A stretch of DNA of 64,000 bases from Candidatus Aminicenantes bacterium (GCA_963764885.1 CAVXUH010000007.1:634764-698763), one strand, 5' to 3'; counted from the stretch's first letter, positions 10,515-53,757 are shown. A program made the numbers and translations. The notes: generated from the sequence alone by a model not told the origin.

Positions 10515-11792
10515 CTAGTAAAACGCGTAGTCGGGGACGACGGCGGATACTTGGCTCCAGCCGTGCAAGAGGCCGTCATAGATCCAGAGTCCGCTCGCGA
10601 ACGCGACCATCAGCGTCGTGTTCCGGTTGTCCCCGTAATAATCTCCGGCCACCATGAAATAGGGATCCGAACCGCTGAGCTGGGTCCAGGAGTTATTGTT
10701 ATATTCGTACATCCACAGCCCGGTCGCTCCGAAATCGACGGCCAGCTCATCGTCGTTGGTGCCCGCATCAACGGTGTAGTCGAATGGCTCGCAGAAACCG
10801 GAGTTATAGGGATATGTGTCGTGAATGGTCACCCGGTTTCCCGGATAACCGCTGTAGGACCAGTAGGTGAGGCCGGCGCCCGAGTTGGAATCGATCACGA
10901 TGCCGGGATTGCCCGAGCCGAACCGGACAGGCTTGAGCCTCTCGGCCCCGTCCGTCGTTATCTGGTGCCAATCGGTGAGGCTGTTCTGCGGCAGGAGCCA
11001 GATCCCCACGCCGGTTCCAAAGTCCAGGATCAAGTCCTCCGCCGCTCCCCCGGTGAACTTAGCCGAGGCATGATCGTCCTCGGCGTTGATGGTCCCGGTC
11101 AACTGTTGATAAATTCCTGAGTACATCCTATATACGCCGACGCCCGGGAACAGGATGCAGCCCTCTTCGTATCCAGGGGTAAAGGAGTCCATCCTGAGAC
11201 CGTGATAGGCGTTGAGGCCGGAGTATTGCGTCCAGAGAGGACCGTCGCTGTCCCAATGCCAGAGACCCGTCGCCCCGAAATCGACGAAGATCTCCTGGCG
11301 CGTATCGTTGTCGTCATCCGCGGCGAAGGCCCATTCGGCGTTGAGCCCGCTGAGCTGCGTCCAGGTGCCGGGATAAGAACTGTAGGTCCACTCCCACAGG
11401 CCCAGCGCGCCGAAATCGCCGATGATCTCGTCGTTGGCGGTGTCGCCCAGGGTCGCGCCGATGATGAACTCGGGATTTGCCCCGCTGATCTGATACCAGG
11501 GTCCGCTGTCACGGACCCAAACGCCGCTCGACCCGAAGTCGCAGGCGATCTCTTGATTGGCGTCAGCGGAATTAAAATTTCCCATGACGACCCCCCAGTA
11601 GGTGCCCAGGCCGTTGCCCGCCGGGTTGGTCGAATTGAGCGGGTCCAGCTGGTCGCTGTCCGGAATGCCTTGGGGGGCGCTGTCCAGGCCCATGATCTTC
11701 GGGGCGGGTTGCAGAGTCTGTGGCTCGTTCTGAGAGAAAGCCAGGCCCCCAACCGCCAGACACAAAAGCAGCACCAAAATCTCTTTTCTCAT
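10515..11792 (-). CDS. secreted beta-propeller repeat protein, paralog B (convergent with paralog A)
   Basis: Signal peptide MRKEILVLLLCLAVGGLAFSQ. Blades DFGSSGVWV...WYQISG, DFGALGLWEW...WTQLSG, DFGATGLWHW...WTQYSG, etc. The C-terminal half is collinear with the 9103..10412 protein. Confidence 0.7.
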   Translation of the reverse strand: MRKEILVLLLCLAVGGLAFSQNEPQTLQPAPKIMGLDSAPQGIPDSDQLDPLNSTNPAGNGLGTYWGVVMGNFNSADANQEIACDFGSSGVWVRDSGPWYQISGANPEFIIGATLGDTANDEIIGDFGALGLWEWTYSSYPGTWTQLSGLNAEWAFAADDDNDTRQEIFVDFGATGLWHWDSDGPLWTQYSGLNAYHGLRMDSFTPGYEEGCILFPGVGVYRMYSGIYQQLTGTINAEDDHASAKFTGGAAEDLILDFGTGVGIWLLPQNSLTDWHQITTDGAERLKPVRFGSGNPGIVIDSNSGAGLTYWSYSGYPGNRVTIHDTYPYNSGFCEPFDYTVDAGTNDDELAVDFGATGLWMYEYNNNSWTQLSGSDPYFMVAGDYYGDNRNTTLMVAFASGLWIYDGLLHGWSQVSAVVPDYAFY

Positions 11793-33302: not shown

Positions 33303-33956
33303 ATGGCCGGGAAGAAGAAATCTCTGGACGCCCAGCGAAGCCGGTACTTCCAGGATATCGCGACCGCCTTCTTCCGCCTGCGCGGGGCGCCCTTTGTTCT
33401 TTCGTCGGGGGACATGGTGACCATCGCGGGCTGGGAACAGGCCGGCATTCCGCTCGGCGTCGTCGAGGAGGGCCTCCGCAGGGCCCACGAGAATTCGCGG
33501 CGGGCGCGGCCCGTCCCCGGCCGGTTGTCATCGCTCTCTTTCTGCGACCGCGAGGTGAAGCGGGCCTTCCAGGAGCACCGGGACAGGCGGGTCGGCCGGG
33601 ACGCGACGCCGGTCGCCCGCTCGCACAAGGCCGGCCAGGCCCGGGAGGCCGTGCGGGCCTTCCTGGAAACCGCCGCCGCCGATGCCGGTGAACTGCGCGA
33701 TGTCTACAGCCGGGCGCTGGCGCTCCTGTCCCGGAAGACCATCCGCGAGGAGGACCTCGAGAAGCTCGAGGCGGAAACGGAGAGGCTGATCCTCGAGCAC
33801 GCCGGGAGCGCGGAGAGGGTGGAAGCCGCGAATCGGGCGCGGGCCGAATTCGCGGGCCAATCCCCCGCCCAATGCGACGAGATCGCGGCGGTCGAGCTCG
33901 TCCGCAGGGCACGGGAAAAATACGGCATCCCGCATCTTTGCCTTTTTTATTATTGA
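33303..33956 (+). CDS. hypothetical protein (about 217 aa, charged helical C-terminus)
   Basis: ATG at 33303 with an ORF to 33956. No motif I can assign with confidence. Confidence 0.45.
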   Translation: MAGKKKSLDAQRSRYFQDIATAFFRLRGAPFVLSSGDMVTIAGWEQAGIPLGVVEEGLRRAHENSRRARPVPGRLSSLSFCDREVKRAFQEHRDRRVGRDATPVARSHKAGQAREAVRAFLETAAADAGELRDVYSRALALLSRKTIREEDLEKLEAETERLILEHAGSAERVEAANRARAEFAGQSPAQCDEIAAVELVRRAREKYGIPHLCLFYY

Positions 33957-33970
33957 CCGGGACGGGACTC

Positions 33971-36025
33971 ATGGAAGAACAAATCCTCGCTCTCCTCAAG
34001 CCGAAAAAGAAGGGGCTGGCCTTTCACCAGATCGCCGGCGCCCTGCGGGTCCACGGCCGGGACCAGACGAAGCTGCGGCGGGTCCTCAAGACCATGGAGT
34101 CGCGCGGGACCCTGCTCAAGACCAAAGACGCCTACTCCGCCCCCCGGGACAAGGCGGTCATCCGGGGCGAGTTCATGCCCAGCTCCCGAGGTTTCGGGTT
34201 TGTCAGGCGGTCGGGCGGCGAGGGCGAGGACGTCTTCGTGCCCGCGCGGTACACCCTGGGCGCCCTGGCCGGAGACACCGTCGAGCTCCTCGTCAAGGAG
34301 AAGGGGAAGATCGGCAAGCCGGAGGGGCGCGTCGTCCGCATCACCAAGAAAGTCCGGGAAACGCTGCTCGGCGTTTACCAGGAACACTACGGCCGGCCGG
34401 TGATCCTGCCTTTCGACTCGGTCTCGCCCGAGGGCCTGCTCCTCGCCTCGCGCGGGGCCGGGAAGATCTCTCCGGGCATGATTATCGAGGCCGAGCGCGA
34501 CACCCTGGCGATCAGGAATGTCTTCGGGTTTCCCGAAGAGCCGGGCGTCGATATCCAGGTGGTCGTCAGGCGCTACAATCTGGCCACCAAGTTCTCCGAG
34601 GACGCTCAGGCCGAGGCCGCCCGCGTCTCGGGGCGGATCACCGCCAAGGACAGGGAGGGCCGGAAGGATTTCCGGCGATGGACGACCGTCACCATCGACG
34701 GCGAGTCCGCCCAGGATTTCGATGACGCCGCGAGCATCCGGCGGCTGCCCTCGGGGAATTTCCTGCTGGGCGTGCACATCGCCGACGTCTCCCACTACGT
34801 CCGGCCCGGCTCGGCGCTCGACAAGGACGCCCTGGCGCGGGCGACGAGCGTCTATCTCCCCGAGTTCACGATCCCCATGCTCCCCGAGGAGCTCTCGAAC
34901 GAGATCTGCAGCCTGCGCGGCCGGCAGGTGCGGCTGACCGTCTCCGTCCTGCTCGAGATCGACCCCCAAGGCCGGGTGGTGAAGGCCGAGTTCCATCCCT
35001 CGCTGATCAAGACCGCCGAGAGGATGACGTACACCTCGGTCTTCAAGATCTTCCAGGGTGACGAGGCCGAGACGGCGCGCTATCGGAAGCTTATCCCCGA
35101 CTTCCTGCTCATGCGCCAGCTCGCCGCCATTCTCCGGCGGCGGCGGGAGGCGGAGGGCAGCCTCAATTTCGACCTGCTCGAGCCCGAGCTCATCTACCAG
35201 GAGGGGACGCTCCACCGGGTGGCGGCCTTCGAGGCTAACGAGGCGCACCATCTGATCGAGGAGTTCATGGTGCTGGCCAACGAGGTGGTCGCCGATCATC
35301 TGAGCCGGAAGGGCGTCCCCGCGCTGTACCGCGTTCATCCGCCGCCGGCCCTGGCCGACATCGCGGAGCTCAAGGAGCTTCTCGAGAACTTCGGCGTCCG
35401 GCTGCCCAAGGCGGAAAAGGTGACCTCTCGCGACCTGCAGCGCGTGATCAAGGAAGTCGAGGGCAAGCCCGACGAGAAGGTCATCCAGTCGCGGGTCCTC
35501 CGGGCCCTGCGGCTGGCCGTCTACTCGGCCGAGAATACGGGGCACTACGGGCTCGCCAAAAAAGACTACACCCATTTCACATCGCCCATCCGGCGCTATC
35601 CCGACCTCATCGTCCACCGCGCCCTCAAGGCGTCGCTCGCCCGGGAAAAGTGGAAGGACCCCGGGCTCGAGGAGCTCGCCCTTCACTGTTCGGACCTGGA
35701 GCGAAAGGCCGACGGCGCGGAGAAGGAGCTCGTCGAGTGGCGCATCTTCCGGCTGCTCAAGACCCGGCTGGGCGACGAGTTCGAGGGCGTCATCGTGGAC
35801 ATCACCAAGGCCGGCGTCCTGGTGGAGCTTGACGACTATTTCGTCGACGGGCTGATCGCCTACGCGGACCTCGGCGGCGATTACTACCGGCAGAAGTCGG
35901 CGCGGACCCTGGTCGGCCGGCGGTCGGGCCGCACCTACGAGCTCGGCCAGAAGATCACGGTCATGCTGGCGGCGGTCGACCCGCTGGCGAGACGGATGAC
36001 GCTCCTCCCGGTGTCCCATCGATGA
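33971..36025 (+). CDS. rnr: ribonuclease R (RNB family, C-terminal S1 domain)
   Basis: Cold-shock/OB N-terminal domains, the RNB catalytic domain (DFDDAASI...HYGL...YTHFTSPIRRYPD) and a C-terminal S1 domain. Confidence 0.9.
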   Translation: MEEQILALLKPKKKGLAFHQIAGALRVHGRDQTKLRRVLKTMESRGTLLKTKDAYSAPRDKAVIRGEFMPSSRGFGFVRRSGGEGEDVFVPARYTLGALAGDTVELLVKEKGKIGKPEGRVVRITKKVRETLLGVYQEHYGRPVILPFDSVSPEGLLLASRGAGKISPGMIIEAERDTLAIRNVFGFPEEPGVDIQVVVRRYNLATKFSEDAQAEAARVSGRITAKDREGRKDFRRWTTVTIDGESAQDFDDAASIRRLPSGNFLLGVHIADVSHYVRPGSALDKDALARATSVYLPEFTIPMLPEELSNEICSLRGRQVRLTVSVLLEIDPQGRVVKAEFHPSLIKTAERMTYTSVFKIFQGDEAETARYRKLIPDFLLMRQLAAILRRRREAEGSLNFDLLEPELIYQEGTLHRVAAFEANEAHHLIEEFMVLANEVVADHLSRKGVPALYRVHPPPALADIAELKELLENFGVRLPKAEKVTSRDLQRVIKEVEGKPDEKVIQSRVLRALRLAVYSAENTGHYGLAKKDYTHFTSPIRRYPDLIVHRALKASLAREKWKDPGLEELALHCSDLERKADGAEKELVEWRIFRLLKTRLGDEFEGVIVDITKAGVLVELDDYFVDGLIAYADLGGDYYRQKSARTLVGRRSGRTYELGQKITVMLAAVDPLARRMTLLPVSHR

Positions 36026-36858
36026 GGAAAGAAAAAGTGATTCGAAAGGGGCCGGCAGTCTCGCGGCGCCGGGAAAAAACGCCCGCTCCGCCGGCGGGCA
36101 GCGACAAGGAAAAGCTGGCGGCTATCTGCCGGGCCCGGGGGATCCGGGGGGTGAGCGAGCGGGACCTGCCGGACCTCGCCTATGTCAGCGAAGAGAAGCT
36201 CGGGCGCCTGAGCGAGGAGCTCGAGGCGGAGGGGACGGTCAAGATCCTGTCGTTTTCGCCGCTGTTCCTGATCTCGCCGGAGAGCTTCGACTATCTCTGT
36301 GAGAAGCTCGTGGCCTATCTCGAGGAGTTCCACAAGGGCCATCCGGCGCTCAAGGGGGTCACGGCCGACAAGGTCAAGGAGCGGTTCGGCATCTCCCAGA
36401 TGGTTTTGTTCCTGGCCGTCAAAACCCTGGAAAAAGCCGGCAAGGTAAGGACGGAGCGGGACCGGCTGATGATCGCGTCCCACGCCGAGGAGCTGTCGCC
36501 TCAGGAGGAGGCGATCCTTAAGCGTCTGGAGGACCTCTACTACCGAGGGGAGTTCCGTTCGGTCTCGCTGGATGAGATCCGGCGGGAGTTCCGGCTGACG
36601 GAAGGCCGGCTGGACCGGCTGGTGAGCATCCTGATGGAACGGAAAAAGATCTTCCAGGGGCCCGAGGGTCTGTTCATCCATTCGCACTGGCTCGACGAAG
36701 TCGTCGCCAAGGTCCGGGCCTCGGGGAAGAAAGAGCTGACCGTCGGGGAATTCAAGAACATGACCGGCCTGAGCCGGAAATATGCCATCCCACTCCTCGA
36801 GCTCCTCGACCAGATGGGGATTACGCAACGCAAGGGGTCAGTCCGGCAGATTTTATAG
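36022..36858 (+). CDS. stand-alone SelB C-terminal winged-helix (SelB-wing) domain protein, no GTPase domain
   Basis: C-terminus VGEFKNMTGLSRKYAIPLLELLDQMGITQRKGSVR closely matches the SECIS-binding WH4 of SelB (E. coli ...[27 protein letters not shown]). Upstream WH repeats are present. 4-nt ATGA overlap with rnr. Confidence 0.6.
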   Translation: MRKEKVIRKGPAVSRRREKTPAPPAGSDKEKLAAICRARGIRGVSERDLPDLAYVSEEKLGRLSEELEAEGTVKILSFSPLFLISPESFDYLCEKLVAYLEEFHKGHPALKGVTADKVKERFGISQMVLFLAVKTLEKAGKVRTERDRLMIASHAEELSPQEEAILKRLEDLYYRGEFRSVSLDEIRREFRLTEGRLDRLVSILMERKKIFQGPEGLFIHSHWLDEVVAKVRASGKKELTVGEFKNMTGLSRKYAIPLLELLDQMGITQRKGSVRQIL

Positions 36859-39412: not shown

Positions 39413-41570
39413 ATGCTCCGGAAAACCGCCTCGATGATCCTGTGGCTCCTTTTACTCATCGGCTTCCTGCGGGCGCCGGCCGCCGCCGACGAGGGGATGT
39501 ACCCCATCAGCGATATCCGCAAGCTCGACCTCAAGTCGAAGGGGCTGGTCCTCGACCCCGCCGAGATCACCTCGACAGACAAAAGCCTCATCTTCGCCAT
39601 CGTCAGCGTCGGCGCAACGGGCTCGTTTGTCTCTCCCCAGGGCCTGTTCATCACCAACCATCATGTCGCCTTCGGCGCCGTCCAGGCCGCGAGCACGACA
39701 GACAGAGACTACCTGCGCGACGGGTTCCTGGCACCTACTCCGGCTGACGAGATCCAGGCGCGCGGCATGACGGCCCGGATTACCGAGTCGTTCACGGACG
39801 TCTCGGCCGAGGTGCTGGGCGCGGTCACCCCCGACATGGAGACGACGTCCAGGACCAAGGCCATCGAGAAGCGCACCAAGGAGATCGTCGCCCGTGCCGA
39901 GAAGTCGAACCCCGGCCAGCGCGCCGAGGTGGCGGAGATGTTCATCGGCCGGAGCTACATCCTCTTCATCTATACTTATCTCAAGGACATCCGCCTGGTC
40001 TATGTGCCGCCCCGCGCCATCGGCGAGTTCGGCGGCGAGGACGACAATTGGATGTGGCCGCGTCACACGGGTGATTTCTCGTTCTTGCGCGCCTACGTCG
40101 CCCCGGACGGCACGCCCGCCGACTACGCGCCGCAGAACGTCCCCTTCCGGCCCAAGCGCTTCCTCAGGATCCAGCCCAGGGGCGCCGTCGAGGGCGATTT
40201 CGTTTTCCTCCTGGGCTATCCGGGCCGGACCTACCGGCATTACCCCGCGAGCTACCTGGCCTACGACGAGGAAGTGCGCATGCCCTACATCGCGGACTGG
40301 TATGCCTGGCAGATCGACCTCATGGAGAAGATGGGCGCCGCCGACCGCGGCGTCGCTCTCCTCCACGCCTCGCGCATCAAGGGCCTGGCGAACACGATGA
40401 AGAACTACCGGGGCAAGCTCAAGGGGATGGGGCGCCTCGGCCTGGTCGAGCGGCGGCGCCGGCAGGAAGCCGCGCTCCGGGAATTCATCGACGCCGATGA
40501 GGGGCGGCGCGCCCGCTACGGGAGCGTCCTGGCGGACATCGGTATGATCTATGATGAGACGCGCGCCGCGTTCGCATCCGACATGCTCCTTGACTATCTT
40601 CGCGGCTCCGTGAACCTGCTGAGCTGTGCTTCGACCGTCACCGAAGCATCGCTCGAGCGAGGGAAGCCGGACCTCGACCGCGAGTCGCGGTTCATGGACC
40701 GGAACTACCCGCAGACAAAGCAGCGGCTTCTGCTCGGCCTCCGCAATTATTATGAGCCTACAGACAAGGCGGTCCTGAAGGAGCTCCTCCTCCGGGCCTC
40801 GCGGCTTAAGGAGCCGAACCGGATCAAGGCCCTGGACGAGGTCTTCAAGGGCGATTTTGGGGAGACCGCCATCGACGCCTTTATCCAAAACGCGTACACC
40901 GCCTCAAAATTGGGCGACGTCCGGTACGTCGAGAGCCTGCTCGCCATGACCCCGGACCGGGTGAGCGCCGTGAGCGACCCGTTCCTCGACCTGGCCAAGG
41001 CCCTCCAGCCGGCCGTCGAGGCCAACCGCGAGAGACAGAAGGCGCGGCGGGGCGAGCTCGACCCTCTGTTCGCCCGGCTGAACGAAGTCGAGGAGGCCCA
41101 TCAGGGGAAGAATTTCATTCCCGATGCCAACAGCACGCTGCGGCTGACCTACGGCCGGGTCAAAGGCTATGAGCCGGCGGATGCCGTTTCCTTAAAGCCG
41201 TTCACGACGCTCCGCGGAGTCCTCGAGAAGACGACCGGCCGGGAGCCCTACAATACGCCGGCGGCGCTCCTCGACTTGGCGCGGGCGCGCGACTTCGGCG
41301 GCTTCGAGCACCCGGCCCTTCACGACGTCCCGGTCTGCCTGCTCTACGATGCCGACACGACGGGCGGCAACTCGGGGAGCCCGGTGCTCAACGCCCGGGG
41401 CGAGCTGATCGGCGTGAATTTCGACCGGACCTACGAGGCCACGGTCAACGATTACGCCTGGAGCGAGGACTACCAGCCGGTCGATCGGCGTCGACATCCG
41501 CTACGTGCTCTGGGTCGCCCAGAAATTCGGGAAGGCGGATTTGCTGCTCAAGGAGATCGGGGCGGATTAA
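39413..41570 (+). CDS. S46 family serine peptidase (DPP7/DPP11-like) with apparent frameshift near 41470-41480
   Basis: Signal peptide. Catalytic His (FITNHHVA), Asp and Ser (TTGGNSGSPV). The conserved C-terminal tail ...IGVDIRYVLWVAQKFGKADLLLKEIGAD continues in the +1 frame to a stop at 41570. The ORF-track call (to 41608) ends in the wrong frame. Confidence 0.8.
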
Positions 41571-41604
41571 GCTCGCCCATCGAAGATCCCCGCCCCAAGC
41601 CGGG

Positions 41605-42609
41605 CTAATCCGATTTCAGCCGGGAAATCCTCCGGACATCCAGGGCACATTCCGCTGCGCAGATCACGGCCGCGATGAGGAGAGTCGCGGCTACGCTGAT
41701 GTTGATCCATTTTTCGAGGGCCGCGATCCCCGTGGCCCCGGTTTTCGCCACCGTGAGCTGAGCCCACTGCGCCTTGACCTCGGCCCAGTGCGCCGCAACC
41801 ACGACGGCGAGGATCCCGGCGCTGGCCGCATTGACCGCCGCCCGGATGCCCAGCCGGAGACGCGTCCAGTAGGGCCGAATGAAGTTGACGACGGAGAGGG
41901 CGACGCTCACAAGAGCCAGGGCCGCGATCGGGGCATAATAGCCCTGGCGGAAGCTCTGCCACACGGCGCCGAGGGTCAACCGCCCGGGGGTTGCCCCCGA
42001 GATGACGACCTCCGGAAAACGAAGCGCGCCCTGCCAGAACAACAGAAAGAGCAGGCCGAAGACGATCTCCCCGATCGAAGAGCTTCGGGGTATCCGTCGC
42101 AGATCGCGCACTCGCGGCAGCCGACGCGGGTCCCACTTGTCTTGATCAGCGAACCGCTGCCGGACCCTGTCCGCGATGGCAAACCCAATCGTGATCGTGG
42201 CAAACGTATAGAGCGCAATGCTCCAGAGCGTCCCCAGGGTCTCGAACAACTCGAACCCGGGATGCTGGGCGCGGTAGGAGGGGACGAAGATGACGAGAAC
42301 GGTCCAGACAACCGCCCACGGCACGAGATAGAAAAGCGCGACGAGCTTCAGGACAAAAAGATAAATGGGGAAGAGGGCCGGGCCGATCAGGTGTTGCTGC
42401 GGGAGGTAGCGTTGCGCCACGATGAACGGGCTGCCCCGCCGCTTGAGGATCGCCGCCAGCTCATCGTCGTTGAGCTTGCGGCCCAGCGCGCCTTCCTTTT
42501 CTTCGGCCTCGGAGCGGATGTCTTCGGACAGCTCGGCGACGATGTCCTTTTTCTGGGCCTTGGGAAGCCAGAACCTGACCGCGTGGAGGTATCGGTCGAG
42601 AAGCTCCAT
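41605..42609 (-). CDS. membrane protein with N-terminal HAAS/DUF1700-like signalling domain (PadR partner)
   Basis: MELLDRYLHAVRFWLP...KDIVAELSEDI is the HAAS N-terminal motif. Multiple TM helices follow. Sits immediately downstream of the PadR gene. Confidence 0.65.
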   Translation of the reverse strand: MELLDRYLHAVRFWLPKAQKKDIVAELSEDIRSEAEEKEGALGRKLNDDELAAILKRRGSPFIVAQRYLPQQHLIGPALFPIYLFVLKLVALFYLVPWAVVWTVLVIFVPSYRAQHPGFELFETLGTLWSIALYTFATITIGFAIADRVRQRFADQDKWDPRRLPRVRDLRRIPRSSSIGEIVFGLLFLLFWQGALRFPEVVISGATPGRLTLGAVWQSFRQGYYAPIAALALVSVALSVVNFIRPYWTRLRLGIRAAVNAASAGILAVVVAAHWAEVKAQWAQLTVAKTGATGIAALEKWINISVAATLLIAAVICAAECALDVRRISRLKSD

Positions 42610-43057: not shown

Positions 43058-44602
43058 CTATTCGGGGTCGAGCCCGCTGATCTGGGCCCAGGCGCCGTCG
43101 TTCCAGAGCCAGAGACCGACCGGCCCGAAGTCGACAGCGACCTCGTCCTGGTTGTCGTCGTCGAAATCGCCGGCGATCATGTATTCCGGATTCAGACCGC
43201 TGAGCTGTGTCCAGGCGCCGCCGTCGGCGAGCCACAGCCCGACGGCGCCGAAGTCGCCGACGATGGCATCATCGCCGTCACCGTCGTGGTCGGCCTTGAT
43301 CACGAACTCCGCGGACAAACCGCTGAGCTGGGTCCAGCTAAGACCGTCGTACGACCAGAGACCGATCAGGCCGAAGGCGCCCACGAGCTCATCCTGTCCG
43401 TCCGCGTTGAGGTCGGCAGTCATCAGATAGGCCGCGTTCACCCCGGAGAGCTGTGTCCAGGCGCCGCTTTTCCATTGCCAGAGGCCGGTCGCCCCGAAAT
43501 CGCCGACGAGGTAATGTCCTCCTGTCCAGGCGCCGGACGCCACATACTCGGCGTTCACGCCGCTGAGCTGGCTCCATGAGCCGCCGCTCCACATCCAGAG
43601 CCCGACGGCGCCGAAATCCCCGATGATCTCGTCCCCGCCCATGCCATCGACGTTTGCCGCCGTTACGTACTCGACGTTCACGCCGCTGATCTGGGTCCAG
43701 GCGCCTCCGTTATTAAGCCAGAGCCCGAGGGCCCCGAAATCGCCGACGATCTCGGCCGCTCCGTCAGCGTCGACATCCCCGGCCGCCAGGCCGTCGGCGT
43801 TGACGGCGCTCAACGTATTCCAGGCGCCCGCGTTCCAGAGCCACAGCCCGGCGGTGCCCAGGTCGGCGAGGATCTCGTCGATGCTGTCTCCGTCGACGTC
43901 GGCGGCGGCCAGGCTCTCGGGATTGCTCGGCGCGAGCTGCGCCCAAGAGCTCTGATCAAAGAGCCAGATGCCAGTCGACCCGAAATCCACGGCCAGCTCG
44001 GCGGCCCCGTCGGCGTCAAAATCCCCGACGGCCTGCCTCTGCCGCCAGACCGGGTCCTCGCCGAGCTTGACCAGATAAGCGCAGGTCAGACCCGAATAGG
44101 CACGGATCGGCGTACCCCAGGTTTCCTCGCTCGTGCCCGTCACGAAGACGCCGCCGGCGCCGTCCGCGGCGATGCCCAAGCCCCAATAGTTGATCGCGAG
44201 ATCGGTGCTCCGCATGAAAGCGTGCCAGGCGAGCGCGCCGCCGGTATCGAGCTTGGCCGCAAAGACGTCCGGGCCGTCAAGGCCGTAAAAAGGAAACACC
44301 GGGGTGCCCCATTCCCAGTAGCTGTAGCCGCCGACGAAGACATTGCCGCTCGGGTCGACGGCGATCGACTCGGCCATGTCGAGGTCCCCGCCCCCGAGGA
44401 ACGTGTTCCACTGAAGGACGCCGGCAGAATTCGGGAAAGCAGCATGACCATGAGCCCTCCTCCCGGTTTTCCCCGGAACGTTCCGAATCCGAAGCCAGGA
44501 GTACGGCCATTTCGGGATAACCGGCGCTCTGCTATTGATGTGACTGCAGGATATTAAACGTCCGGGGGCGATGTCAAGCGGTCGACCTAGCCGGTCAAAC
44601 AC
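43058..44602 (-). pseudogene. N-terminally degraded paralog of the SBBP plus 41-aa-blade propeller protein (about 80 percent identical to 51007-52500)
   Basis: C-terminal 450 aa collinear with the 51007..53037 product. No signal peptide. Upstream SBBP-like fragments lie in other frames (ORFs 44140..44451 and 44277..44510). Confidence 0.55.
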
Positions 44603-44789
44603 GACGTCGGCAAGTGGCGTCGCTGGCGGCTCGAATTGGCCGAGGTAGATTCCCGTGGGAGCGCCGAGGCCGCGGTCGATGATTAGACCCGGAGCGAGAG
44701 CGATAGCCGGTTGATCGTTGCGGATAAAAAAAGGGGACGGTTTCCGATCGGAAACCGTCCCCTTGAGATTCTGCGGGGATAATTATGCG

Positions 44790-47700
44790 CTACTGGAGGT
44801 TCATGGCGTTAATCTGGACCGCCGCGGCGTTATTCCACATCCAGGTCCCGAGGCCGGGGAAGCTCATGAGGATTTCGTCGGCGCTGTCGCCGTCCACGTC
44901 CGCGGCCAGCATGATCTCGGGATTCCTGACGTCGATCTGGTTGAACACTCCGGCGGTCTGGAGCCAGACGCCCAGAGCGGCAAAGTCTCCGGCGATCTCA
45001 TCGATGCCGTCGCCGTTGACGTCGCAGCGGATCACCGAATCCACATTAACGCCGCTCAACTGCGTCCAGACATTGGCCTCCCAGGTGAACAGGCCGGTGG
45101 GGCCGAAATCGCCGATGATCTCATCCACCTGGTTCCCGTTCGTGTTCGCGGTGATAATGCTTTCAACGTTCACTCCGCTCAGCTGCGTCCAAGCGGCGTC
45201 CCACCTCCAGAGGCCGACCGCGCCGAAGTCACCCGCCACGTACCCGCCCACGGCCTTCCGGCCGAGGGCCATCGTTTCCACGTTCACGCCGGTCAGGATG
45301 TGCCAGTTGCCGGCGCTCCAGTACCACAAGCCGACGGCGCCGAAATCGCCCACGATCTCAGCCGCGGTCGTTCCGGTGATATCTCCGACCATGACCTGGT
45401 CGGCGTTGACGCCGCTGAGCTGCGTCCAACTGGTCCCGTTGAGCAGCCACAAGCCGACCGCCCCGAAATCCGCCACCAGCTCTTGACTGGCGTCGGCATC
45501 CACGTTGCCCGCGGCCAGGGACTGGACATCGAAACCGCTCAGCTGCGTCCAGACCGTCCCGTCCCGGTGCCACAAGCCGACTATGCCGAAGTCGGCGATG
45601 ATCTCGTCCCGTCCGTCGCCGTTGAGGTCAACCGAGACCAGGGTTTCGGGGTTGAAGGCGGATAGCTGCGACCAGGCGCCGTCGCTGTACAGCCAGAGCC
45701 CGTTCGCCCCGAAATCGACCGCCAGGTCCTTGAGCCCGTCGCCGTCAAAGTCACCCGAGGCGTGCTGGCCGGTCCCGGCGTTGCCCGAGATGACGCTGCC
45801 GGTGGCGATCGTCGCGGCGTTGGAATAAGCGGAGGCGACCGCTTTCGTGGGGAAGCCGATCGACGGTGCCGGGTAGACCGTGGTATCGCCGATCACATTC
45901 GTTCCATACACCCTGTAGTGGTAGGTTGTGGCTCCCTGGACCGTGGTGTCGGAGAAAGTCGTGGCGTCAGCGGCGGCCGCAAACGTCGCGAAGTTAGCCG
46001 TGAAGCCGGCATCCGTGGCCCGTTCGATGGTGAAGGAGGTTTCTGTCAGCGAGTTGTCGGTCCAGGTCAGGTTCACCGCGTTGGCGCCCAATGCCGCTTG
46101 CAGGTTGGACGGCGCTTCGGGGGGGAGCCCCAGGGCGACCGCATGCATCATGTCGTTTTCTTCATGCGCCAGCAGATGGCAGTGCCAGACGTATTCCCAG
46201 CCGAAATTGACCGGATGGTTGACGACCGTCACGGGATTCCCGGCCGGGTCGGCCAGCGCCGGGACGGCATCGAGCACGGTCCCCAGCGGTTCACTCGGGG
46301 CCAAAGGCCGGACTGAGTTGGGAATTTTGAACGGCAAAACAGGAGCGATCGGCCGCAGGGCGACGATCGTGTCCTGAAGCGGGTTGATCTTGATGGTATC
46401 CTTCCAGCCGAGCTCATTGGCGTCGGGTTTCCGGACATTGTTGTCCCAGGCCACCCGGTTGATCAGCTGGACTTCGAAAATGTGGAAGTGGACCGCGTGA
46501 GTGTCGACACCATTCTGGGCGATCTTCCAGAGCTGGGTGCCGTCGCCCAGCACGCCGATGGGCGACCCGTAGATCGAGGGCGTGATGAGCTCCACAGGAG
46601 GATGGACATAATCATAGAGCAGGAAGGTCTGCGCGTTGCCGACGCTCAGAGGCAGATGGAGCCCCAATTTAGCGGCCATCCGTCCGTACTGAGGATCGAA
46701 GACGCCCCCCATCTCATCATGAATGGCCTTCGGTTCGAGCGGCAGCGTCACGGGCGCGGCCGCGCCGATGGGCGTGAAGGTCATCGTGGTGTCCCCGATA
46801 TGGACATACGAGTTTGATGGGAAAATCATGTTGTAGGCGGAATTGTAGACCGCATTCGGGACGACGATCTGATGCTGCGAGGCGGCGAAGGCGCCCGGTG
46901 TCGTGCCGGTCGTGGCGAACGCCGCCTGCAGGGCTGTCAGATTGTACGGGGCCGCGGGGACGCCGGCGGCCACCCGGATCTGCATGATGGTCCGCGTGTT
47001 GGGCCCGAAGCCCGCCACCGTCGAGGGCGCGCCCCCGACATCCGTCAGGTCTTCATTATTGGTGTAATAATCATAGCGCGGGTCCGAAGCCGGAACGGCC
47101 GCCGGCGAGTCGTTGTAGAGGATGAGCGTTTTCCCGGCGTACTGGGAGAAGTCGACGATGACGTCCGCCCTTTCCGCGCTGCCGAGAAAAAGCGAATAGG
47201 TGTTGACATTGCCGAAATCAAATGTCCCCATGTCGCGGTTCCAGTCGACCGGCTGGTTGGGGATGACAACGGGCGCGGGCAGGAAGCCGCCCTCGTGGCC
47301 GATCTGGATCCAGGAGGGGCCCTGGGTGGCCGGATCGGGCACTCCGCCATCCCGGCCGTCGGTCGGCCAGGTCGGCGGGTAGGCGGCGGTCGGGACCGCC
47401 GGGACCATCTTGACTTCGGTGTTGGTCCGGCCGTCGAAAGTCGTCACGGCGGGGTCGGCGATATACATCTGCAGGTTAAAGAACCTGTCGTTGGCGGCGT
47501 TCAGGATGCGGAGGCGGTAGGACTTGGGCTGAACGACGACGTAGGGATAGGCCGTGCCGTTGATGACCGGAGTATCCATGAACCCTTCAGCCACAACTGA
47601 CGGGTTGGGGGTTGAGGGGATGACAGCCGGTTCCAACGGCGCATTGATCGGGTCGTAATAAGGATTGGCGGGAAGCGGATGGTACGGCATGAAGGGGGGG

Positions 47701-49028
47701 AAGAACCAGGCGCTGTAGTGCCACCGGCCCAGGGCGTTTACCCCGTGTTCGTCGGCTGGATTCTGGTAGGGCATGTAAACGTGCGGATACCAGAGTTCCC
47801 CGAACCCGCCGTATCTTGCGGAATCCCAGGTGGGATCCTGGGATTGGAGTTGGGAGGCGAAGGTCCCGAGGCGGTTCGTGACGGGCAGCGTGTTGTCCGG
47901 AACAAAGGTCTTGTCCTGGAGGACCAGCGGGATCTGATCGGCGGGAATGATCCCGGAAGCGACCAGGTCCTGCTCGACGGGATCCTGCAGCAGGTAGGCG
48001 GCGGCCTCGCCGACGTAAACGTTGAGGCGCGTGATCCCGAAAGCATGGTCGTGATAGAACATCAGCCGGGCGCTCTGCTGGTTGGAGTAAAAGAACGTCT
48101 GCGCGCCGGGGCCGGGGTCCGGCATGTCGGGGACATTCCGGACGCTCACGCCTTTGGGATAAGAGGTGCTCTCACCGGCGGGAGTGATCCACTGGTGGGG
48201 CGTTCCGTCGCTGATCCAGGGCGTGTTGCCGCCGTGCAGATGAATGGTGGCCCGATTCTGGGTATACATCTCGGTGCCGCCATTGGGGCCCGTCCCCGCG
48301 CCCATGATGGTCGTATCCACGGGGATGAACAAATTGCCGCCGGCGCCCGTCGCGAGTCTGTTGGTGAACTTGACGCGCACGGGCCGGTCCTTCTGGGCGA
48401 TGATCAGGGGTCCCAGGTAATGCGGCGAACCGACCGGGACGCCGCTATTTTCCTGCACATAGCCCCGCATCTTGACGCCCGCGGCCGGGAGGTCCGAGTG
48501 CATCCGCGCCCGATATTCAACGAGCGCGATCTCGTAATAGTCCGAGCCCGGAAAGGCGGTGGTGTTCGGGGTGGCTATTTGGATATACTGACCGAGGTTA
48601 TTCGCCCCCGCGGGCCCGAGGCCCGCCAGCGAATCGACGAACTTGCGCATTCCGCCGGCGATGGCGGTGATGGCACCCGTCGCGTCCCTGGTGACCCTGG
48701 GGAGCGGGCTGTTGGCGTAGTTCGAGTAGATGCCGAAATAGTCCGGCGTTCCGCCGACCGGCGGGACCACATTGGCGATGGATTTGTTCGCCGAAGCCGA
48801 ATCCCTTGCTGCCTTGGCTCGGGCCGCCGCAGCCTTCAGCTCGGCGAGGGTCGGGCGCTTCATCTTGTTGTTCGCGGCGGTGGCTCGGTACGTCGCCTGC
48901 GCGCCGGCGTCCGACGCCGAAGTCATGGTCGGGGCCGCCTGCGACGGGGCGGGACCCTTATCGAACGCCCCGAGCGCGATAAACGCGAACACCAGGGCGA
49001 CTAATACGATTCTTTTTGATTTGGACAT
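44790..49028 (-). CDS. secreted large multicopper oxidase fused to an FN3 domain and a C-terminal 41-aa-blade beta-propeller
   Basis: Sec signal. Copper-ligand motifs HLHGGNTPW, FYHDHAFG, HAVHFHIFE and HCHLLAHEENDMM. FN3-like segment (NLTWTDNSLTETSF...YHYRVYG). Seven or more DFGxxGLW...WTQLSG blades. GGAGG RBS 8 nt upstream of the ATG. Confidence 0.85.
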   Translation of the reverse strand: MSKSKRIVLVALVFAFIALGAFDKGPAPSQAAPTMTSASDAGAQATYRATAANNKMKRPTLAELKAAAARAKAARDSASANKSIANVVPPVGGTPDYFGIYSNYANSPLPRVTRDATGAITAIAGGMRKFVDSLAGLGPAGANNLGQYIQIATPNTTAFPGSDYYEIALVEYRARMHSDLPAAGVKMRGYVQENSGVPVGSPHYLGPLIIAQKDRPVRVKFTNRLATGAGGNLFIPVDTTIMGAGTGPNGGTEMYTQNRATIHLHGGNTPWISDGTPHQWITPAGESTSYPKGVSVRNVPDMPDPGPGAQTFFYSNQQSARLMFYHDHAFGITRLNVYVGEAAAYLLQDPVEQDLVASGIIPADQIPLVLQDKTFVPDNTLPVTNRLGTFASQLQSQDPTWDSARYGGFGELWYPHVYMPYQNPADEHGVNALGRWHYSAWFFPPFMPYHPLPANPYYDPINAPLEPAVIPSTPNPSVVAEGFMDTPVINGTAYPYVVVQPKSYRLRILNAANDRFFNLQMYIADPAVTTFDGRTNTEVKMVPAVPTAAYPPTWPTDGRDGGVPDPATQGPSWIQIGHEGGFLPAPVVIPNQPVDWNRDMGTFDFGNVNTYSLFLGSAERADVIVDFSQYAGKTLILYNDSPAAVPASDPRYDYYTNNEDLTDVGGAPSTVAGFGPNTRTIMQIRVAAGVPAAPYNLTALQAAFATTGTTPGAFAASQHQIVVPNAVYNSAYNMIFPSNSYVHIGDTTMTFTPIGAAAPVTLPLEPKAIHDEMGGVFDPQYGRMAAKLGLHLPLSVGNAQTFLLYDYVHPPVELITPSIYGSPIGVLGDGTQLWKIAQNGVDTHAVHFHIFEVQLINRVAWDNNVRKPDANELGWKDTIKINPLQDTIVALRPIAPVLPFKIPNSVRPLAPSEPLGTVLDAVPALADPAGNPVTVVNHPVNFGWEYVWHCHLLAHEENDMMHAVALGLPPEAPSNLQAALGANAVNLTWTDNSLTETSFTIERATDAGFTANFATFAAAADATTFSDTTVQGATTYHYRVYGTNVIGDTTVYPAPSIGFPTKAVASAYSNAATIATGSVISGNAGTGQHASGDFDGDGLKDLAVDFGANGLWLYSDGAWSQLSAFNPETLVSVDLNGDGRDEIIADFGIVGLWHRDGTVWTQLSGFDVQSLAAGNVDADASQELVADFGAVGLWLLNGTSWTQLSGVNADQVMVGDITGTTAAEIVGDFGAVGLWYWSAGNWHILTGVNVETMALGRKAVGGYVAGDFGAVGLWRWDAAWTQLSGVNVESIITANTNGNQVDEIIGDFGPTGLFTWEANVWTQLSGVNVDSVIRCDVNGDGIDEIAGDFAALGVWLQTAGVFNQIDVRNPEIMLAADVDGDSADEILMSFPGLGTWMWNNAAAVQINAMNLQ

Positions 49029-49528
49029 GTCTCATTCCTCCTTGATTCCTAAACCCGAAGACAATTCATCGAACTGTCCCCATGCTATAGATTCCTGTGT
49101 AGCCCCTATGGTAGACCCATTATCCTCCTTATTTTCCGGCCTGATTGACAACCGTCGCTTCCTCTTGTAGTTAGTCCTAGCAAAAATCGTGCCAGACCGG
49201 ACATCTCTCTATGTCACATCCTCAAGAACCCGCTCCCCGAGGGATGGGAAAGAATCGCCCGTCCATATAAACCTATTGAGCGAGAGGCACATTCGGGCAT
49301 TTTGGGGCCCCGGGCCATGAAAATCCTTCTCCCGGCCGAGAATCCAGTCAGCCGGGCCTGCCGACGCCGGCCGCGCCCGGCCGCCGGCGCCCCGTCGGCC
49401 ATCAGCCGGGCCGTCACGCTGGCGCTTGTCTTGGGGGATAGGACGTTTCCTGAATGGAAGGACTGCCCGCGCGGCCGCCGGCCGCCCCGTCAGCGGGCCG
49501 GATGGCTGCCGCAAACTTGGCATAGAGA

Positions 49529-50914
49529 TTGCATTCCCAACGAGAGTCTGGGAAAATATCGCCTGTGAAAAGAATTATCTACGCCGGGGTGGCCGTGCTG
49601 CTGATCGTGGCCGGGTTTATCGTCGGCGCTTGGATCACCCGCCGCAATATCACAGGTGGGATGCCAGCCGCCAAGTCCGGCGCGGGCCTCGTCGCCGGTG
49701 AACCCGGTGACGGCGAGGCGGGTGAATTTTCTCCCGGCGCGGTGAATATCAACCCCCGCAAACAGCAGCTCACCGGCATCCGCGTCGCCGAGGTCAAGAA
49801 AGAGACGGCGAACCATTCCCTCCGCGTGCTCGGCCGCGTGGCGGTCGACAACACTCGGCTCTACATCGTGAACGCGACGACGAGAGGCTGGTTCCTGTCT
49901 CTCGCCCCTGTTACACCCGGCGCCATGGTCAAAAAGGGCGAGGTCCTGGGTTCGTTCTACGCGCCGGAGCTGTTGAGAACCGTCCAGACCTATCTCAGCG
50001 ACACTTTCACCCTCGACAGGTTGAAGGGTAACCCGGAAGCGCCCGCTTTCAAGTCGGCCCAGTTTTCCGTCGCCCAGGACAGGGATCTCCTCATCAGCAT
50101 GGGCATGGGCGAGAGGCAGCTCCAGGAGATCGCCAGGACCAGGGAATGGGACCCGCACGTCGACCTCGTCTCGCCCACGACCGGGATCGTCATCGCCTGG
50201 AACGTCTTTCCGGCATTGAAATTCGCCGAGGGCACGGAGTTCTTCCGGATCGCCGACCTGAGCCGCGTCTGGATCCTGCTCGACGTCTTCGAGAACGAAA
50301 CCAAATACCTTAGACCGGGTGTGAAATCGAGTGTGTCGCTGGCCGGCCAGCCGGTCACCTTCGAAGCGGTCGTCAGCAACGTCCTGCCGCTCTTTGACCC
50401 GGTCAGCCGGACGATGAAGGTCCGGCTTGAGGCGAACAACCCGGGGTATGTCCTCCGGCCCGACATGTTTGTGGACGTCGAGCTGCCGCTTCGGCTGCCG
50501 GAGTCGATCGCCGTGCCGGCGGACGCCGTGCTCGACTCGGGCCTTAAAAAGACCGTCTTCGTCGAGCGCAGCGAGGGTTACTTCGAGCCGAGGGAAGTCC
50601 AGACCGGCTGGAAGCTGGGCAACCAGGTCGAGATCGTCAAGGGGCTCGAGCCCGGGGAGCGGATCGTCGTTTCGGGCACTTTTCTGATCGATTCCGAGAG
50701 CCGGATGGAGACGGCCGTCGCCGGGATGCAGGAAAGCCTGGCCCGGGACCCGGTCTGCGGGGTTCCCGTTTCCGTCAAGAAGGCCGAAGACGCCGGCCGG
50801 AAGAGCACGCGCTCGGGGAAAACCTATTATTTTTGTTCCGCTGAGTGCAAGGCCAAGTTCGACGAAAATCCTGAGAAATACGCTGAACTTCCGGCCAATC
50901 CGGCCCCGAAGTGA
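49529..50914 (+). CDS. efflux membrane-fusion protein (CusB/HlyD-like periplasmic adaptor) with C-terminal YHS/TRASH copper-binding domain
   Basis: N-terminal TM anchor, then MFP beta-barrel/lipoyl/alpha-hairpin regions. C-terminal DPVCGVPV...YYFCSAECKAKF (YHS). Start may instead be the GTG near 49565. Confidence 0.8.
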   Translation: MHSQRESGKISPVKRIIYAGVAVLLIVAGFIVGAWITRRNITGGMPAAKSGAGLVAGEPGDGEAGEFSPGAVNINPRKQQLTGIRVAEVKKETANHSLRVLGRVAVDNTRLYIVNATTRGWFLSLAPVTPGAMVKKGEVLGSFYAPELLRTVQTYLSDTFTLDRLKGNPEAPAFKSAQFSVAQDRDLLISMGMGERQLQEIARTREWDPHVDLVSPTTGIVIAWNVFPALKFAEGTEFFRIADLSRVWILLDVFENETKYLRPGVKSSVSLAGQPVTFEAVVSNVLPLFDPVSRTMKVRLEANNPGYVLRPDMFVDVELPLRLPESIAVPADAVLDSGLKKTVFVERSEGYFEPREVQTGWKLGNQVEIVKGLEPGERIVVSGTFLIDSESRMETAVAGMQESLARDPVCGVPVSVKKAEDAGRKSTRSGKTYYFCSAECKAKFDENPEKYAELPANPAPK

Positions 50915-51006: not shown

Positions 51007-53402
51007 CTAATCCGGATTCAGACTGCTGATCTGGGACCAGGCGCCGTCGTTCAAGAGCCAGAGGCCGAGGGAACCGAAGTCGGCAGCGATTTCGTCTTTG
51101 TTGTCCCCGTCCACATCGCCGGCCATCATATAGTCGGGGTTCACGCCGCTGATTTGGGTCCAAGCACCGCCGTCGACCAGCCACAGCCCGGTGCCCCCGA
51201 AATCGCCGACGATGGCGTGATCTCCGTCGCCGTCGGTGTCGGCCTTGATCAGGTACTCCGCGGCCAGGCCGCTGAGCTGCGTCCAGCTAAAACCATCGAA
51301 AGACCAGAGGCCGGTCAGGCCGAAGGCCCCCACGAGCTCATCCTCGCCGTTCCCGTTGAGGTCGGCCGTCATCACGTAGGAGGCGTTGACCCCGGAGAGC
51401 TGCGTCCAGGCGCCGCCCTGCCACAGCCATAGGCCGAGCGCCCCGAAATCGCCGACGAGGTACGTTCCCCCGGCCCAGTCGCCGGATGTCATGTAATCGG
51501 CGTTCACCCCGCTGAGCTGGGTCCAGGCGCCGCCGTTCCACAGCCACAGCCCGACGGCGCCGAAGTCGCCGATGATCTCGTCCCCGTCCAAGCCGTTGAC
51601 GTTGGCGACGGTCACTTGTTCAACATTGACGCCGCTGAGCTGGGTCCAGGCGCCGCCGTTATTGAGCCAGAGGCCGACGGCGCCGAAGTCGCCGACGACC
51701 TCGTCCGCGCCGTCGACATCGACATCCCCGGCCGCCAGGCTGTCGACGTTGACGCCGCTCAACTGATTCCAGGCGCCCGCGTTCCACAGCCACAGCCCTC
51801 CGCCGCCGAGGTCGGCGAGGATCTCGTCGACGCTGTCGCCGTCGACGTCGGCGGCGACCAGGCTCTCGGGGTTGGCCGCCGTGAGCTGCGACCAGGAGCC
51901 GCCGTTATACAGCCAGGCGCCCGTCGCCCCGAAGTCCACGGCGAGCTCGGCGGCCCCGTCGCCGTCAAAATCTCCCACGGTATGCCGCCGCCGCCACACC
52001 GGGTCCTCGCCGAGCTTAACCAGGTAGGCATCGTAGAGGCCAGAAAAGGCGCGGATCGGGGTGCCGAAGGATCCCTCGCTTGTCCCCGTCACGAAGGTGC
52101 CGCCCGCCCCGTCCACGGCAATGCCCATGCCCCAGTAGTTGATCGCCCAATCGGTGCTCGGCAAAAAGGTGTTCCAAGCCAGGGTGCCGCCGCCGTCGAG
52201 CTTGGCCGCGAAGATGTCCGGGCCGTCGAGCCCATAGTAGGGGTTCGCTGGAGTCCCCCAACCCGCGTAGCTGTAGCCGCCCACAAAGACGTTGCCGCTG
52301 CCGTCCACGGCGATCGCCTCGGCCATGTCCATGTCGGCGCCCCCGAGGAAAGAGTTCCACAGGAGGCCGCCGCCCGCGCTGAGCTTGGCAGCGAAACCGT
52401 CCATGGATCCTGCAAAGGGATTGACCGGCGAGCCCCAGGAATCGTTGCTCAGGCCGGCGATATAGATATCCCCCTTGACGTCGGTCTCGATGCGATAGGC
52501 GACGACATTGTTGCCCGGGGAGCCCAGGAAGGTGTTCCACACCGGCGCGCCTCCGCCGTCGAACTTGGCGACGAACGCGTCCGAATTGCCCGTAAAGGGA
52601 CGGATGGGCGAGCCCCAGGACGAGTCGCTCGTGCCCGTGACGAAAGCGCCGCCGCTCTCGTCCGCCGCCACATCCCAGGCGGTAGCGCCTTCCGAGCCTC
52701 CGAAAAACGTGTTCCACTGGAGCGCGCCGGCGCCGTTGAGCCTGGCCAGGAAACTATCGTAATCGGAGAACGGCGCGACCGGCGTCCCCCAGGTGGCCAC
52801 GCTTTCCCCGCAGACATAGATGTTCCCTGAGCCATCAACGGCGATCGCCCCGGGCGTATCGCTCTGGTCGCCCCCGAGGAAGGTGCTCCATTGCAGGCCG
52901 CCGTTGGCGTCGAGCTTGGCGGCCCAGATATCATGCATCCCTCCCTGGAAGGCCCGGACCGGGGAGCCCCAAGTGAGGTTGGCCGTGCCGGCGACATAGA
53001 CGTTGCCGGCCGGATCGAGGGCGATCGAGTGGGACATGTCGTCGCCGTCCCCCCCAGGAACGTGTTCCAGAGCAGGGCGCCGCCCGGGCTCAGCTTGGCG
53101 ACGAAGGCGTCAAAATTGGCGCCGGAGTAAGCGCGGACCGGCGTGCCCCAGGAATAATTGCTGATGCCGACAACGTAGATATTCTTGTTGGCATCCAGGA
53201 CGACGGCGTGGCCATGGCTTTCGATCGCCCCGCCCAGGAACGTATTCCAGATGAGGAATGGGCCGGCCGCCGGCAAGGGGTTGGCCGCCGCCCCGCTGAC
53301 TTGGGCGGCCGAGAGAGTTCCCCCGGTCGGCATGATCATGTCATGGATGGGAAACAGGCACAGAGCGATGCCGATGATGATAGTCCTGGAAAGCGCCTTT
53401 GT
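51007..53402 (-). CDS. secreted SBBP-repeat plus 41-aa-blade beta-propeller protein (1-nt deletion in a C7/G7 run near 53049-53055 splits the reading frame)
   Basis: Signal peptide MTKALSRTIIIGIALCLF. SBBP repeats (WNTFLGG...DxSGNxYVxGxS...WGxP...DAFVAKL) x5, then 10 or more propeller blades. ORFs 52449..53714 and 51007..53037 join if the homopolymer is 8 nt. Confidence 0.7.
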
Positions 53403-53757
53403 CATGATCCCCTCCTCTCCCTCGGCACCTCGCGAGTGCCTTGAACGAAACCGGGCGGCCGCGATGCCGCAGATGACCTCGGTCTTCTGCAAATGGGCAA
53501 TGGCAGAATATAAATCCCTGAGGCGGATGTCAATATGCCTTCCCTGGCAACAGCATCGTGCCGGCTGGGCCGGTCGAAGAGATGGGCGTGATCCGTGTGG
53601 GGACCGAAATTTGCCGATAGAAAAATGCCAACACGATCGAAGCGTGGTGATCTCAACAACCGACAATGAGATGGCCACGTCCCCGTGGGAGACTCGCAAT
53701 GACATATAAGTCAACGACTTCTGTTTCTATCGGCAATCTTGGGCGGGGAGGGGGCGA

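Follow-up and report, generated by a model that had tools for sequence, protein, structure and literature searches.

Analysis of a 64,000-nucleotide (nt) stretch of DNA from a Candidatus Aminicenantes bacterium (GCA_963764885.1 CAVXUH010000007.1:634764-698763, hereafter the window) revealed the gene of a large multicopper oxidase (MCO) on the minus strand at positions 44790..49028. Its product comprises a putative signal peptide, an N-terminal extension, an MCO core, an FN3 domain and a C-terminal propeller. A preliminary description of this DNA had placed an open reading frame (ORF) of 1412 amino acids (aa) at these positions; ORF analysis and translation bore this out, with the start codon ATG at 49028 and the minus strand as the coding strand. 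The GC contents at the three codon positions (0.61/0.47/0.83) were like those of other real genes in this window of 64% GC. A Shine-Dalgarno-like AAGGAGG can be read from the sequence 8 nt 5′ of the ATG (49037..49043, minus strand), and directly 3′ of the stop codon lies an intrinsic-terminator-like hairpin followed by a T-run (44731..44764, minus strand; 15 bp, 9 of them GC, tail TTTTTATCCG). Third-position GC, ribosome-binding site and terminator all fit, and the gene is real. A homology search retrieved an identical 1412-aa protein from NCBI/ENA (entry P0001) as well as a full-length orthologue with 84% identity (P0002).

The N-terminus (aa 1 to ~31; 48936..49028, minus strand) resembles a Sec-type signal peptide or N-terminal anchor, with MSKSKR followed by a hydrophobic run of 16 residues and ending in ...SQA/AP, and residues 3-18 form a helix in the predicted model. 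The cleavage site was inferred from the sequence, without a dedicated predictor. Inspection of this region showed neither a twin-arginine motif nor a lipobox. The protein appears to be a functional MCO and, as had been proposed, a secreted one.

Copper site, oxidase fold and C-terminal domains

The copper motifs of the protein are HLHGG (residues 263-267), FYHDH (324-328), HAVHFH (844-849) and HCHLLAHEENDMM (949-961), together spanning residues 263-961. They form the complete set HxHG, HxH, HxxHxH and HCHxxxHxxxxM, with ten histidines, one cysteine and an axial methionine. Among the predicted copper ligands, H844, C950, H955 and the axial M960 would build the type-1 site, and H263, H265, H326, H328, H847, H849, H949 and H951 the trinuclear cluster. 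All ligands paired residue for residue with those of CotA-type laccases and bilirubin oxidases (7z5p, 9bd5 and 1gsk; phmmer, E 1e-33 to 1e-35) in five collinear pieces, in which residues 158-384, 472-521, 608-643, 828-867 and 928-963 of the query correspond to residues 21-207, 218-267, 287-322, 404-442 and 470-505 of CotA. As the ligands align in this way, the motifs are not chance matches; all four, already recognized in the preliminary description, are genuine, and the predicted cupredoxin fold agrees. D274 and E956 are paired in the same alignment with the proton-relay residues Asp116 and Glu498 of CotA.

The site is strongly conserved. In an alignment of 72 sequences, the His and Cys ligands as well as D274 and E956 were invariant, and the conserved region extended from residue ~95 to 975. 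Among the long homologues (at least 1000 aa, n = 267), 255 kept all four motifs and 247 had Met at the axial position.

The three-domain, CotA-like core was delimited by phmmer, AlphaFold and Foldseek to aa 126-966 (46131..48653, minus strand). An AlphaFold model of aa 1-1075 built with 72 homologues reached a predicted local distance difference test (pLDDT) score of 80 and a predicted template modelling (TM) score of 0.84. Compared by Foldseek with whole CotA chains, it gave target-normalized TM scores of 0.77-0.80 (best E 4e-36); bilirubin oxidase and the phenoxazinone synthase PhsA were also matched. Relative to an enzyme of CotA size, the protein has an N-terminal extension of ~125 aa and insertions at about 385-471, 522-607, 644-827 and 868-927, ~430 extra residues in total, and these are conserved across the family. 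The predicted oxidase core is therefore a single three-domain fold of the CotA/bilirubin oxidase type, enlarged by an extension and insertions. It is indeed far longer than CotA or CueO (~840 aa against 513 in CotA), as had been noted. The comparison with MnxG, suggested by this size, did not hold for the arrangement of domains: the size comes from extension and insertions within one three-domain unit; a six-domain arrangement of the MnxG type was ruled out by the single motif set and by the one CotA-length unit that covers the core.

Profile searches with the oxidase part scored low. Cu-oxidase_2 of Pfam reached 27.7 bits and the other two cupredoxin models E 0.1. Only sub-threshold matches were obtained with NCBIfam, namely to the o-aminophenol oxidase PhsA (the best, 104.8 bits against a cutoff of 950), to the CueO equivalog model NF008205 (56.6 bits against a cutoff of 525) and to FtsP.

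The core is followed by an FN3 domain at aa ~969-1078 (45795..46124, minus strand). It forms a seven-strand sandwich in both predicted models, Foldseek matched it to FN3 receptors, and PF00041 was found in the aligned region of homologues; predicted fold and relatives thus agree with the FN3-like domain described before. In 180 of the 267 long homologues an FN3-like domain is present, with a median start 22 residues after motif 4.

The C-terminus (aa 1092-1412; about 44793..45755, to 45776 at the widest, minus strand) forms a predicted eight-bladed beta-propeller of FG-GAP-like repeats of ~41 aa. The units start at aa 1105, 1146, 1187, 1228, 1267, 1307, 1348 and 1389, with a period of 39-41 aa and a mean pairwise identity of 41%. 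In a model of aa 960-1412 (pLDDT 85, ~90 in the repeats) the FN3 sandwich is followed by eight four-stranded blades, one per unit, and a strand N-terminal to unit 1, DFDGDGLKDLAV, completes the last blade. The propeller had been described as carrying calcium-binding-like DxDGDGxDE loops; the blades and the loops were found, but only the closure strand and units 1, 6 and 7 have intact loops, those of the remaining units being degenerate. PF01839 passed its Pfam cutoff (25.6 bits, cutoff 22.1), and PF13517 stayed below (21.6 bits, cutoff 26.9). With a unit of 41 aa instead of the usual ~60 aa, the repeats are a compact subtype of FG-GAP/VCBS repeats. A DNA repeat search detected a tandem period of 123 bp in a neighbouring gene with SBBP repeats (see below) but not in the MCO gene, so that the MCO blades appear to be old rather than a recent expansion.

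The propeller is not confined to oxidases. An exhaustive HMMER search with the propeller by itself retrieved 2345 representative clusters, 334 of them at E <=1e-30, and the module was nearly always located at the extreme C-terminus of its host proteins, which ranged from 400 to 4600 aa. Ten propeller-bearing proteins were scanned for domains: six contained SBBP repeats upstream, three of these six also DUF7948, while the other four carried CarboxypepD_reg, PPC or InlB B-repeat domains or none that could be recognized. Extracellular proteins, mostly of the DUF7948/SBBP kind, thus share the 41-aa propeller as a widespread module at the C-terminus. Pfam detects the module weakly, and some distant relatives have a precomputed PF26696 match. 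An anchoring or ligand-binding role may be inferred for the propeller by analogy of fold.

Family spread and relation to OmpB and MofA

A homology search with the MCO retrieved at least 6000 protein clusters, the best 120 of which were 53-84% identical over ~70% of the query. Family members are mostly 50-65% identical over aa ~95-975, across bacteria and archaea, and where homologues are named, the names are generic, most often 'FtsP/CotA-like multicopper oxidase with cupredoxin domain'. The genome scan, in which each species was represented by one genome, found relatives at 47-77% identity. In bacteria these belong to Aminicenantes (the best, 77%), other Acidobacteriota, Chloroflexota, Actinomycetota/Coriobacteriia, Bacillota (among them Neobacillus and Clostridium malenominatum), Planctomycetota, Omnitrophota and Desulfobacterota, including Geomonas; in archaea they belong to Bathyarchaeota, Methanomassiliicoccales, Methanoperedens, Methanoregula and Methanospirillum. 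Many of these host lineages are known as strict anaerobes. Homologues with 50-60% identity are shared by methanogen lineages, Methanoperedens, Bathyarchaeota and numerous bacterial phyla, and an O2-reducing enzyme may accordingly have been transferred between the two domains, among lineages commonly regarded as anaerobic. Literature searches found nothing specific on this MCO family for Aminicenantes, Methanoperedens or archaea generally, and the motif-4 peptide had no match in a full-text search.

Beyond the FN3 domain the C-termini of the family vary and comprise further FN3 or Ig domains, ASH ('choice-of-anchor D') repeats, or FG-GAP/VCBS propellers. Fusions of MCO and FG-GAP were very common among the matches to Geobacteraceae queries, with dozens of homologues in Desulfobacterota, and one of them, the 1280-aa 'FG-GAP-like repeat-containing protein' P0191 of Pelotalea chapellei, comes from a cultured organism. 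The preliminary description had regarded the succession of MCO, FN3 and propeller as unusual. This stands insofar as no biochemically characterized MCO has the full layout; within the family, however, MCO-FN3 is the default and propeller fusions are common in Geobacteraceae and other Desulfobacterota, and the layout is therefore normal variation. In the closest genome, an Aminicenantes metagenome-assembled genome (MAG; locus L002), the MCO orthologue of 77% identity is called as two ORFs of 298 and 893 aa (7992-11647) and keeps only the first ~108 residues of the propeller; this copy is probably frameshifted or decayed.

In Geobacter, OmpB has been described as an exported MCO of >1000 aa in which the oxidase is followed by an FN3 domain (PMC5566968, PMC6013743). 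It is set apart from other MCOs by FN3 and by an EXXE motif, and MofA of Leptothrix is reportedly its homologue. The ompB/mofA clusters contain a set of mofB, mofC and copper-chaperone genes (PMC5566968), of which mofB encodes an FKBP isomerase and mofC a cytochrome c with a periplasmic-binding domain. The Geobacteraceae members of the present family are 47-53% identical to the window's MCO over the whole core. In P. chapellei, P0191 is preceded by a smaller second MCO, two FKBP genes, SCO1/SenC and the gene of a 561-aa protein in which a signal peptide, a single CxxCH and a Peripla_BP_6 domain were recognized. This neighbourhood equals the published mofB/mofC/chaperone set and ties the family to OmpB/MofA by synteny.

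The same association recurs elsewhere. An FKBP isomerase gene lies directly upstream of the MCO gene in Geomonas paludis, a Geobacteraceae MAG, Geobacter sp. DSM 9736 and Geomobilimonas luticola (loci L056, L082, L083 and L084), the last three of which also have a small secreted ORF directly upstream. One or more neighbours of the mofB/mofC/SCO1 type are also found at L050, and in the Geobacteraceae locus L086 NosL and type II secretion genes lie near the MCO. Based on synteny and architecture, not on alignment, the family to which the window's MCO belongs is thus likely the OmpB/MofA family. Neither GSU1394 nor GSU2657 nor MofA was among the matches listed in the genome scan or in the searches seeded with the window's protein and with the Geomonas and Geobacter sp. 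DSM 9736 proteins.

The small secreted ORF of Geobacteraceae was observed at L082 (7689-7940), L083 (7733-7966), L084 (7524-7937), L085 (7469-7867) and L086 (7627-7932). It encodes 77-137 aa, falls into two families by sequence and is separated by 34-133 nt from the MCO gene that follows it, usually with the FKBP gene on its other side; the window has no counterpart. The K/A/R-rich N-terminal helix of the window's MCO was considered as a fused version of this ORF and rejected (BLAST E >0.05).

Neighbouring genes in the window

The gene upstream is transcribed divergently from the MCO gene and encodes a CusB/CzcB-like membrane-fusion protein (MFP) with a C-terminal YHS domain (MFP-YHS; 49529..50914, plus strand), with Pfam matches to HlyD_D23 (2e-47) and YHS (3e-14) and matches to the NCBIfam models CzcB and CusB below cutoff. 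No resistance-nodulation-division (RND) pump gene was found beside it in the window or at L002, and the window contains no CusA. It had been asked whether homologues of the MCO are always linked to such a gene, and they are not: MFP-YHS adjoins the large MCO in only seven of 81 loci, from Acidobacteriota and from Myxococcota or other 'delta' lineages. At four of the seven (L050, L071, L078 and L079) a CusA/CzcA pump follows (TIGR00914, 1027 bits, cutoff 701).

Two further genes carry the propeller. The first encodes an SBBP-repeat protein with the same 41-aa propeller (51007..53405, minus strand) and contains an apparent 1-nt frameshift near 53050-53072. The propeller of its larger part (51007-53037) is 55% identical to that of the MCO; the upstream piece, in another frame, starts with ATG at 53405 and carries a signal peptide and the first SBBP repeats. 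When repaired, the protein would have 799 aa, just like the product of the SBBP gene at the equivalent site of the P0002 contig; the split gene is either a pseudogene or an assembly error. The second, directly downstream of the MCO gene, is a 5′-truncated duplicate (43058..44602, minus strand), 76% identical to aa 214-676 of the first over 463 aa; it lacks a signal peptide and begins with ~51 unrelated residues. This truncated copy also contains a promoter-like site (44577-44548).

The arrangement of MCO, MFP-YHS and SBBP genes is also present on the P0002 contig and at L002, which is otherwise syntenic with the window. Linkage to propeller paralogues, about which the same had been asked, thus applies to the closest relatives but not beyond them. 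ORF clustering over the 81 loci revealed no universal neighbour of the MCO, and a Pfam census of 113 immediate neighbours showed no dominant family; a universally conserved operon partner was rejected on these grounds. The 81 loci included 16 with an ATP-binding cassette (ABC) ATPase and 10 with an FtsX-type permease as neighbours, and response regulators or sensor kinases were counted in 5-13 each.

The rest of the window holds housekeeping and sugar-uptake genes. A 278-aa ORF at 36022-36858 (plus strand) matches only the C-terminal winged-helix domains of the selenocysteine elongation factor SelB, without the GTPase part, and shares 4 nt with the end of the RNase R gene (33872-36025). Also present, and unconnected with the MCO, are genes for an S46 (DPP7/DPP11-type) dipeptidyl peptidase (39413-41608, plus strand) and a heparinase II/III-like protein (61321-63990, minus strand), which would suit an organism that degrades proteins and polysaccharides.

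Proposed function and known systems

The conserved MCO active site is complete, judged from the sequence, and apparently belongs to an exported protein with an adhesion-like tail. The best explanation of the data as a whole, to which we assign a probability of about 0.45, is a Sec-exported, surface-held, copper-dependent oxidase of the OmpB/MofA family acting on an extracytoplasmic electron donor. According to established MCO chemistry, electrons of the substrate would enter singly at the type-1 copper, and the trinuclear cluster would reduce O2 to water. FN3 linker and propeller, the latter with its calcium loops, would stay outside catalysis and, by analogy with the propeller of Bap1 and with propeller lectins (see below), may hold the enzyme on a ligand of the cell surface or matrix, probably a glycan; as the same propeller module ends all three proteins, the MCO and the two SBBP products might be co-localized. 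The substrate is the least certain step. It would be an extracytoplasmic one-electron donor, with a reduced metal ion such as Fe(II), Mn(II) or Cu(I) as the likeliest candidate; a metal is favoured because of the link to OmpB/MofA. The adjacent CusB-like YHS protein could handle copper for the enzyme, in supply or detoxification.

Several observations weigh against this explanation. Membership in the OmpB/MofA family follows from synteny and architecture rather than direct alignment, no FKBP, MofC-like or SCO1 gene lies near the MCO in the window, and the EXXE 'Fe(III)-binding' motif of OmpB, a low-information motif, is absent from all 1412 aa. The anchoring role of the propeller derives from fold analogy at 15% identity, and location at the cell surface rather than in the periplasm is a prediction and a weak point. 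The protein contains no Met-enriched stretch and hence no Cu(I)-binding segment of the CueO/PcoA type. As no gene is a universal neighbour, the context says little on the substrate, and anaerobic host lineages sit awkwardly with an O2-dependent enzyme.

The adjacent MFP gene could also indicate a different function, a periplasmic cuprous oxidase that would produce Cu(II) from Cu(I), in analogy to CueO or PcoA, alongside Cus-type Cu(I)/Ag(I) efflux, with MFP-YHS as the remnant of such a system. The divergent CusB/CzcB-like protein with its copper-associated YHS domain, the seven loci with this gene beside the large MCO, four of them with CusA/CzcA, and the frequency of two-component regulators among the neighbours are in line with it. 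We nevertheless consider it unlikely: the Met-rich segment is lacking, the score with the CueO model is far below cutoff, 74 of the 81 loci have no MFP, the window has no CusA, and the tail together with the FKBP/SCO1/NosL context in Geobacteraceae better fits a displayed cuproenzyme that needs a copper supply. Structure comparison points in another direction, as CotA laccases, bilirubin oxidases and phenoxazinone synthase come nearest among solved structures and the best NCBIfam match is PhsA; a laccase-type oxidase of phenolic, humic or lignin-derived compounds or of pigments, with propeller and FN3 binding the polymer, would also suit hosts from sediment and soil. The PhsA score is, however, far under its cutoff, no aromatic-degradation genes lie nearby, and the only genetic data for the presumed family (OmpB/OmpC and MofA) concern metal oxides, so that this function appears doubtful.

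The anaerobic reputation of many hosts, including methanogens and Methanoperedens, together with a tail that resembles an adhesion module, would be accounted for if the protein transferred electrons independently of O2 to or from insoluble Fe(III)/Mn(IV) oxides outside the cell, as proposed for OmpB, or served mainly for attachment to minerals. Selection on oxidase chemistry is indicated by the strictly conserved proton relays and trinuclear site for O2 reduction, no multihaem cytochrome or porin-cytochrome genes were found in the window, and EXXE is missing; we regard this explanation as quite unlikely. A decayed or non-catalytic adhesin, in which the MCO scaffold is a structural passenger, is highly improbable. 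Two neighbouring propeller genes are damaged, one by a frameshift and one by 5′ truncation, and the Pfam cupredoxin scores are weak, but the 1412-aa ORF is intact and identical to a database protein, the His/Cys ligands and catalytic acids are invariant, and identity to the full-length orthologue is 84%.

The surface-held oxidase of the OmpB/MofA family thus remains the preferred explanation. Its most extended form appears rather unlikely to us: a conserved, horizontally spread surface oxidase with which sediment organisms use up traces of O2 while extracellular Fe(II), Mn(II) or Cu(I) donates the electrons, and which locally forms one assembly with the two SBBP proteins and the CusB-YHS protein, MFP-YHS delivering copper to the exported apo-enzyme.

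The MCO of the window is a rather typical representative of a very large family that has been studied little and is already linked to metal cycling through OmpB/OmpC and MofA genetics; the family is known mainly through this genetics and has never been characterized biochemically. This gene adds little by itself. The family is noteworthy for its size of at least 6000 clusters and its unusual conservation between bacteria and archaea, and also because its O2-reducing copper site is complete even where the hosts belong to lineages generally regarded as strict anaerobes. The family has neither a full-length Pfam or NCBIfam model nor a biochemically defined substrate, and characterizing any member would annotate thousands of genes and clarify the role of OmpB-type proteins in iron and manganese cycling. 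Particular to the present lineage is the compact 41-aa-repeat propeller common to the MCO and neighbouring genes.

Among known systems, the Bacillus CotA laccase/bilirubin oxidase (1gsk, 9bd5 and 7z5p) shares the three-cupredoxin fold, the ligand pattern, the axial Met and equivalents of the proton-relay residues with the MCO of the window. Identity is ~21%, and the four insertions, the N-terminal extension, the FN3 domain and the propeller are present only in the latter. The Mn(II) oxidase MnxG of Bacillus and Pseudomonas is also an MCO of similar overall size. MnxG is a six-domain, ceruloplasmin-like MCO, whereas the present protein has one three-domain unit with one set of four motifs. For the propeller, the best bacterial structural analogue is the biofilm matrix protein Bap1 of Vibrio cholerae (PDB 6mlt), and the propeller lectins PLL and PVL are also similar; identity to these proteins is 12-17%, the beta-prism insertion is lacking, and ligand binding is suggested by analogy. 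The MCO + FG-GAP/VCBS proteins of Desulfobacterota, such as P0191, have the same MCO core and likewise a C-terminal propeller of the FG-GAP type. Their propellers, however, consist of canonical ~60-aa repeats with weak similarity to the 41-aa module (BLAST E 1e-4 to 1e-6) or none, and unlike the window's protein they often have no FN3. OmpB and OmpC of G. sulfurreducens (GSU1394 and GSU2657) and MofA of Leptothrix discophora share with it, as reported for OmpB, the size of >1000 aa, export, and the four motifs followed by FN3. The present MCO differs from them in its lack of mofB/mofC/SCO1 neighbours and of EXXE, in its C-terminal 41-aa-repeat propeller and in its host, an Aminicenantes-like acidobacterium instead of Geobacter or Leptothrix. 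While secretion to the outer surface proceeds via the type II secretion system in Geobacter, the window's MCO shows a predicted N-terminal signal of the Sec type only.

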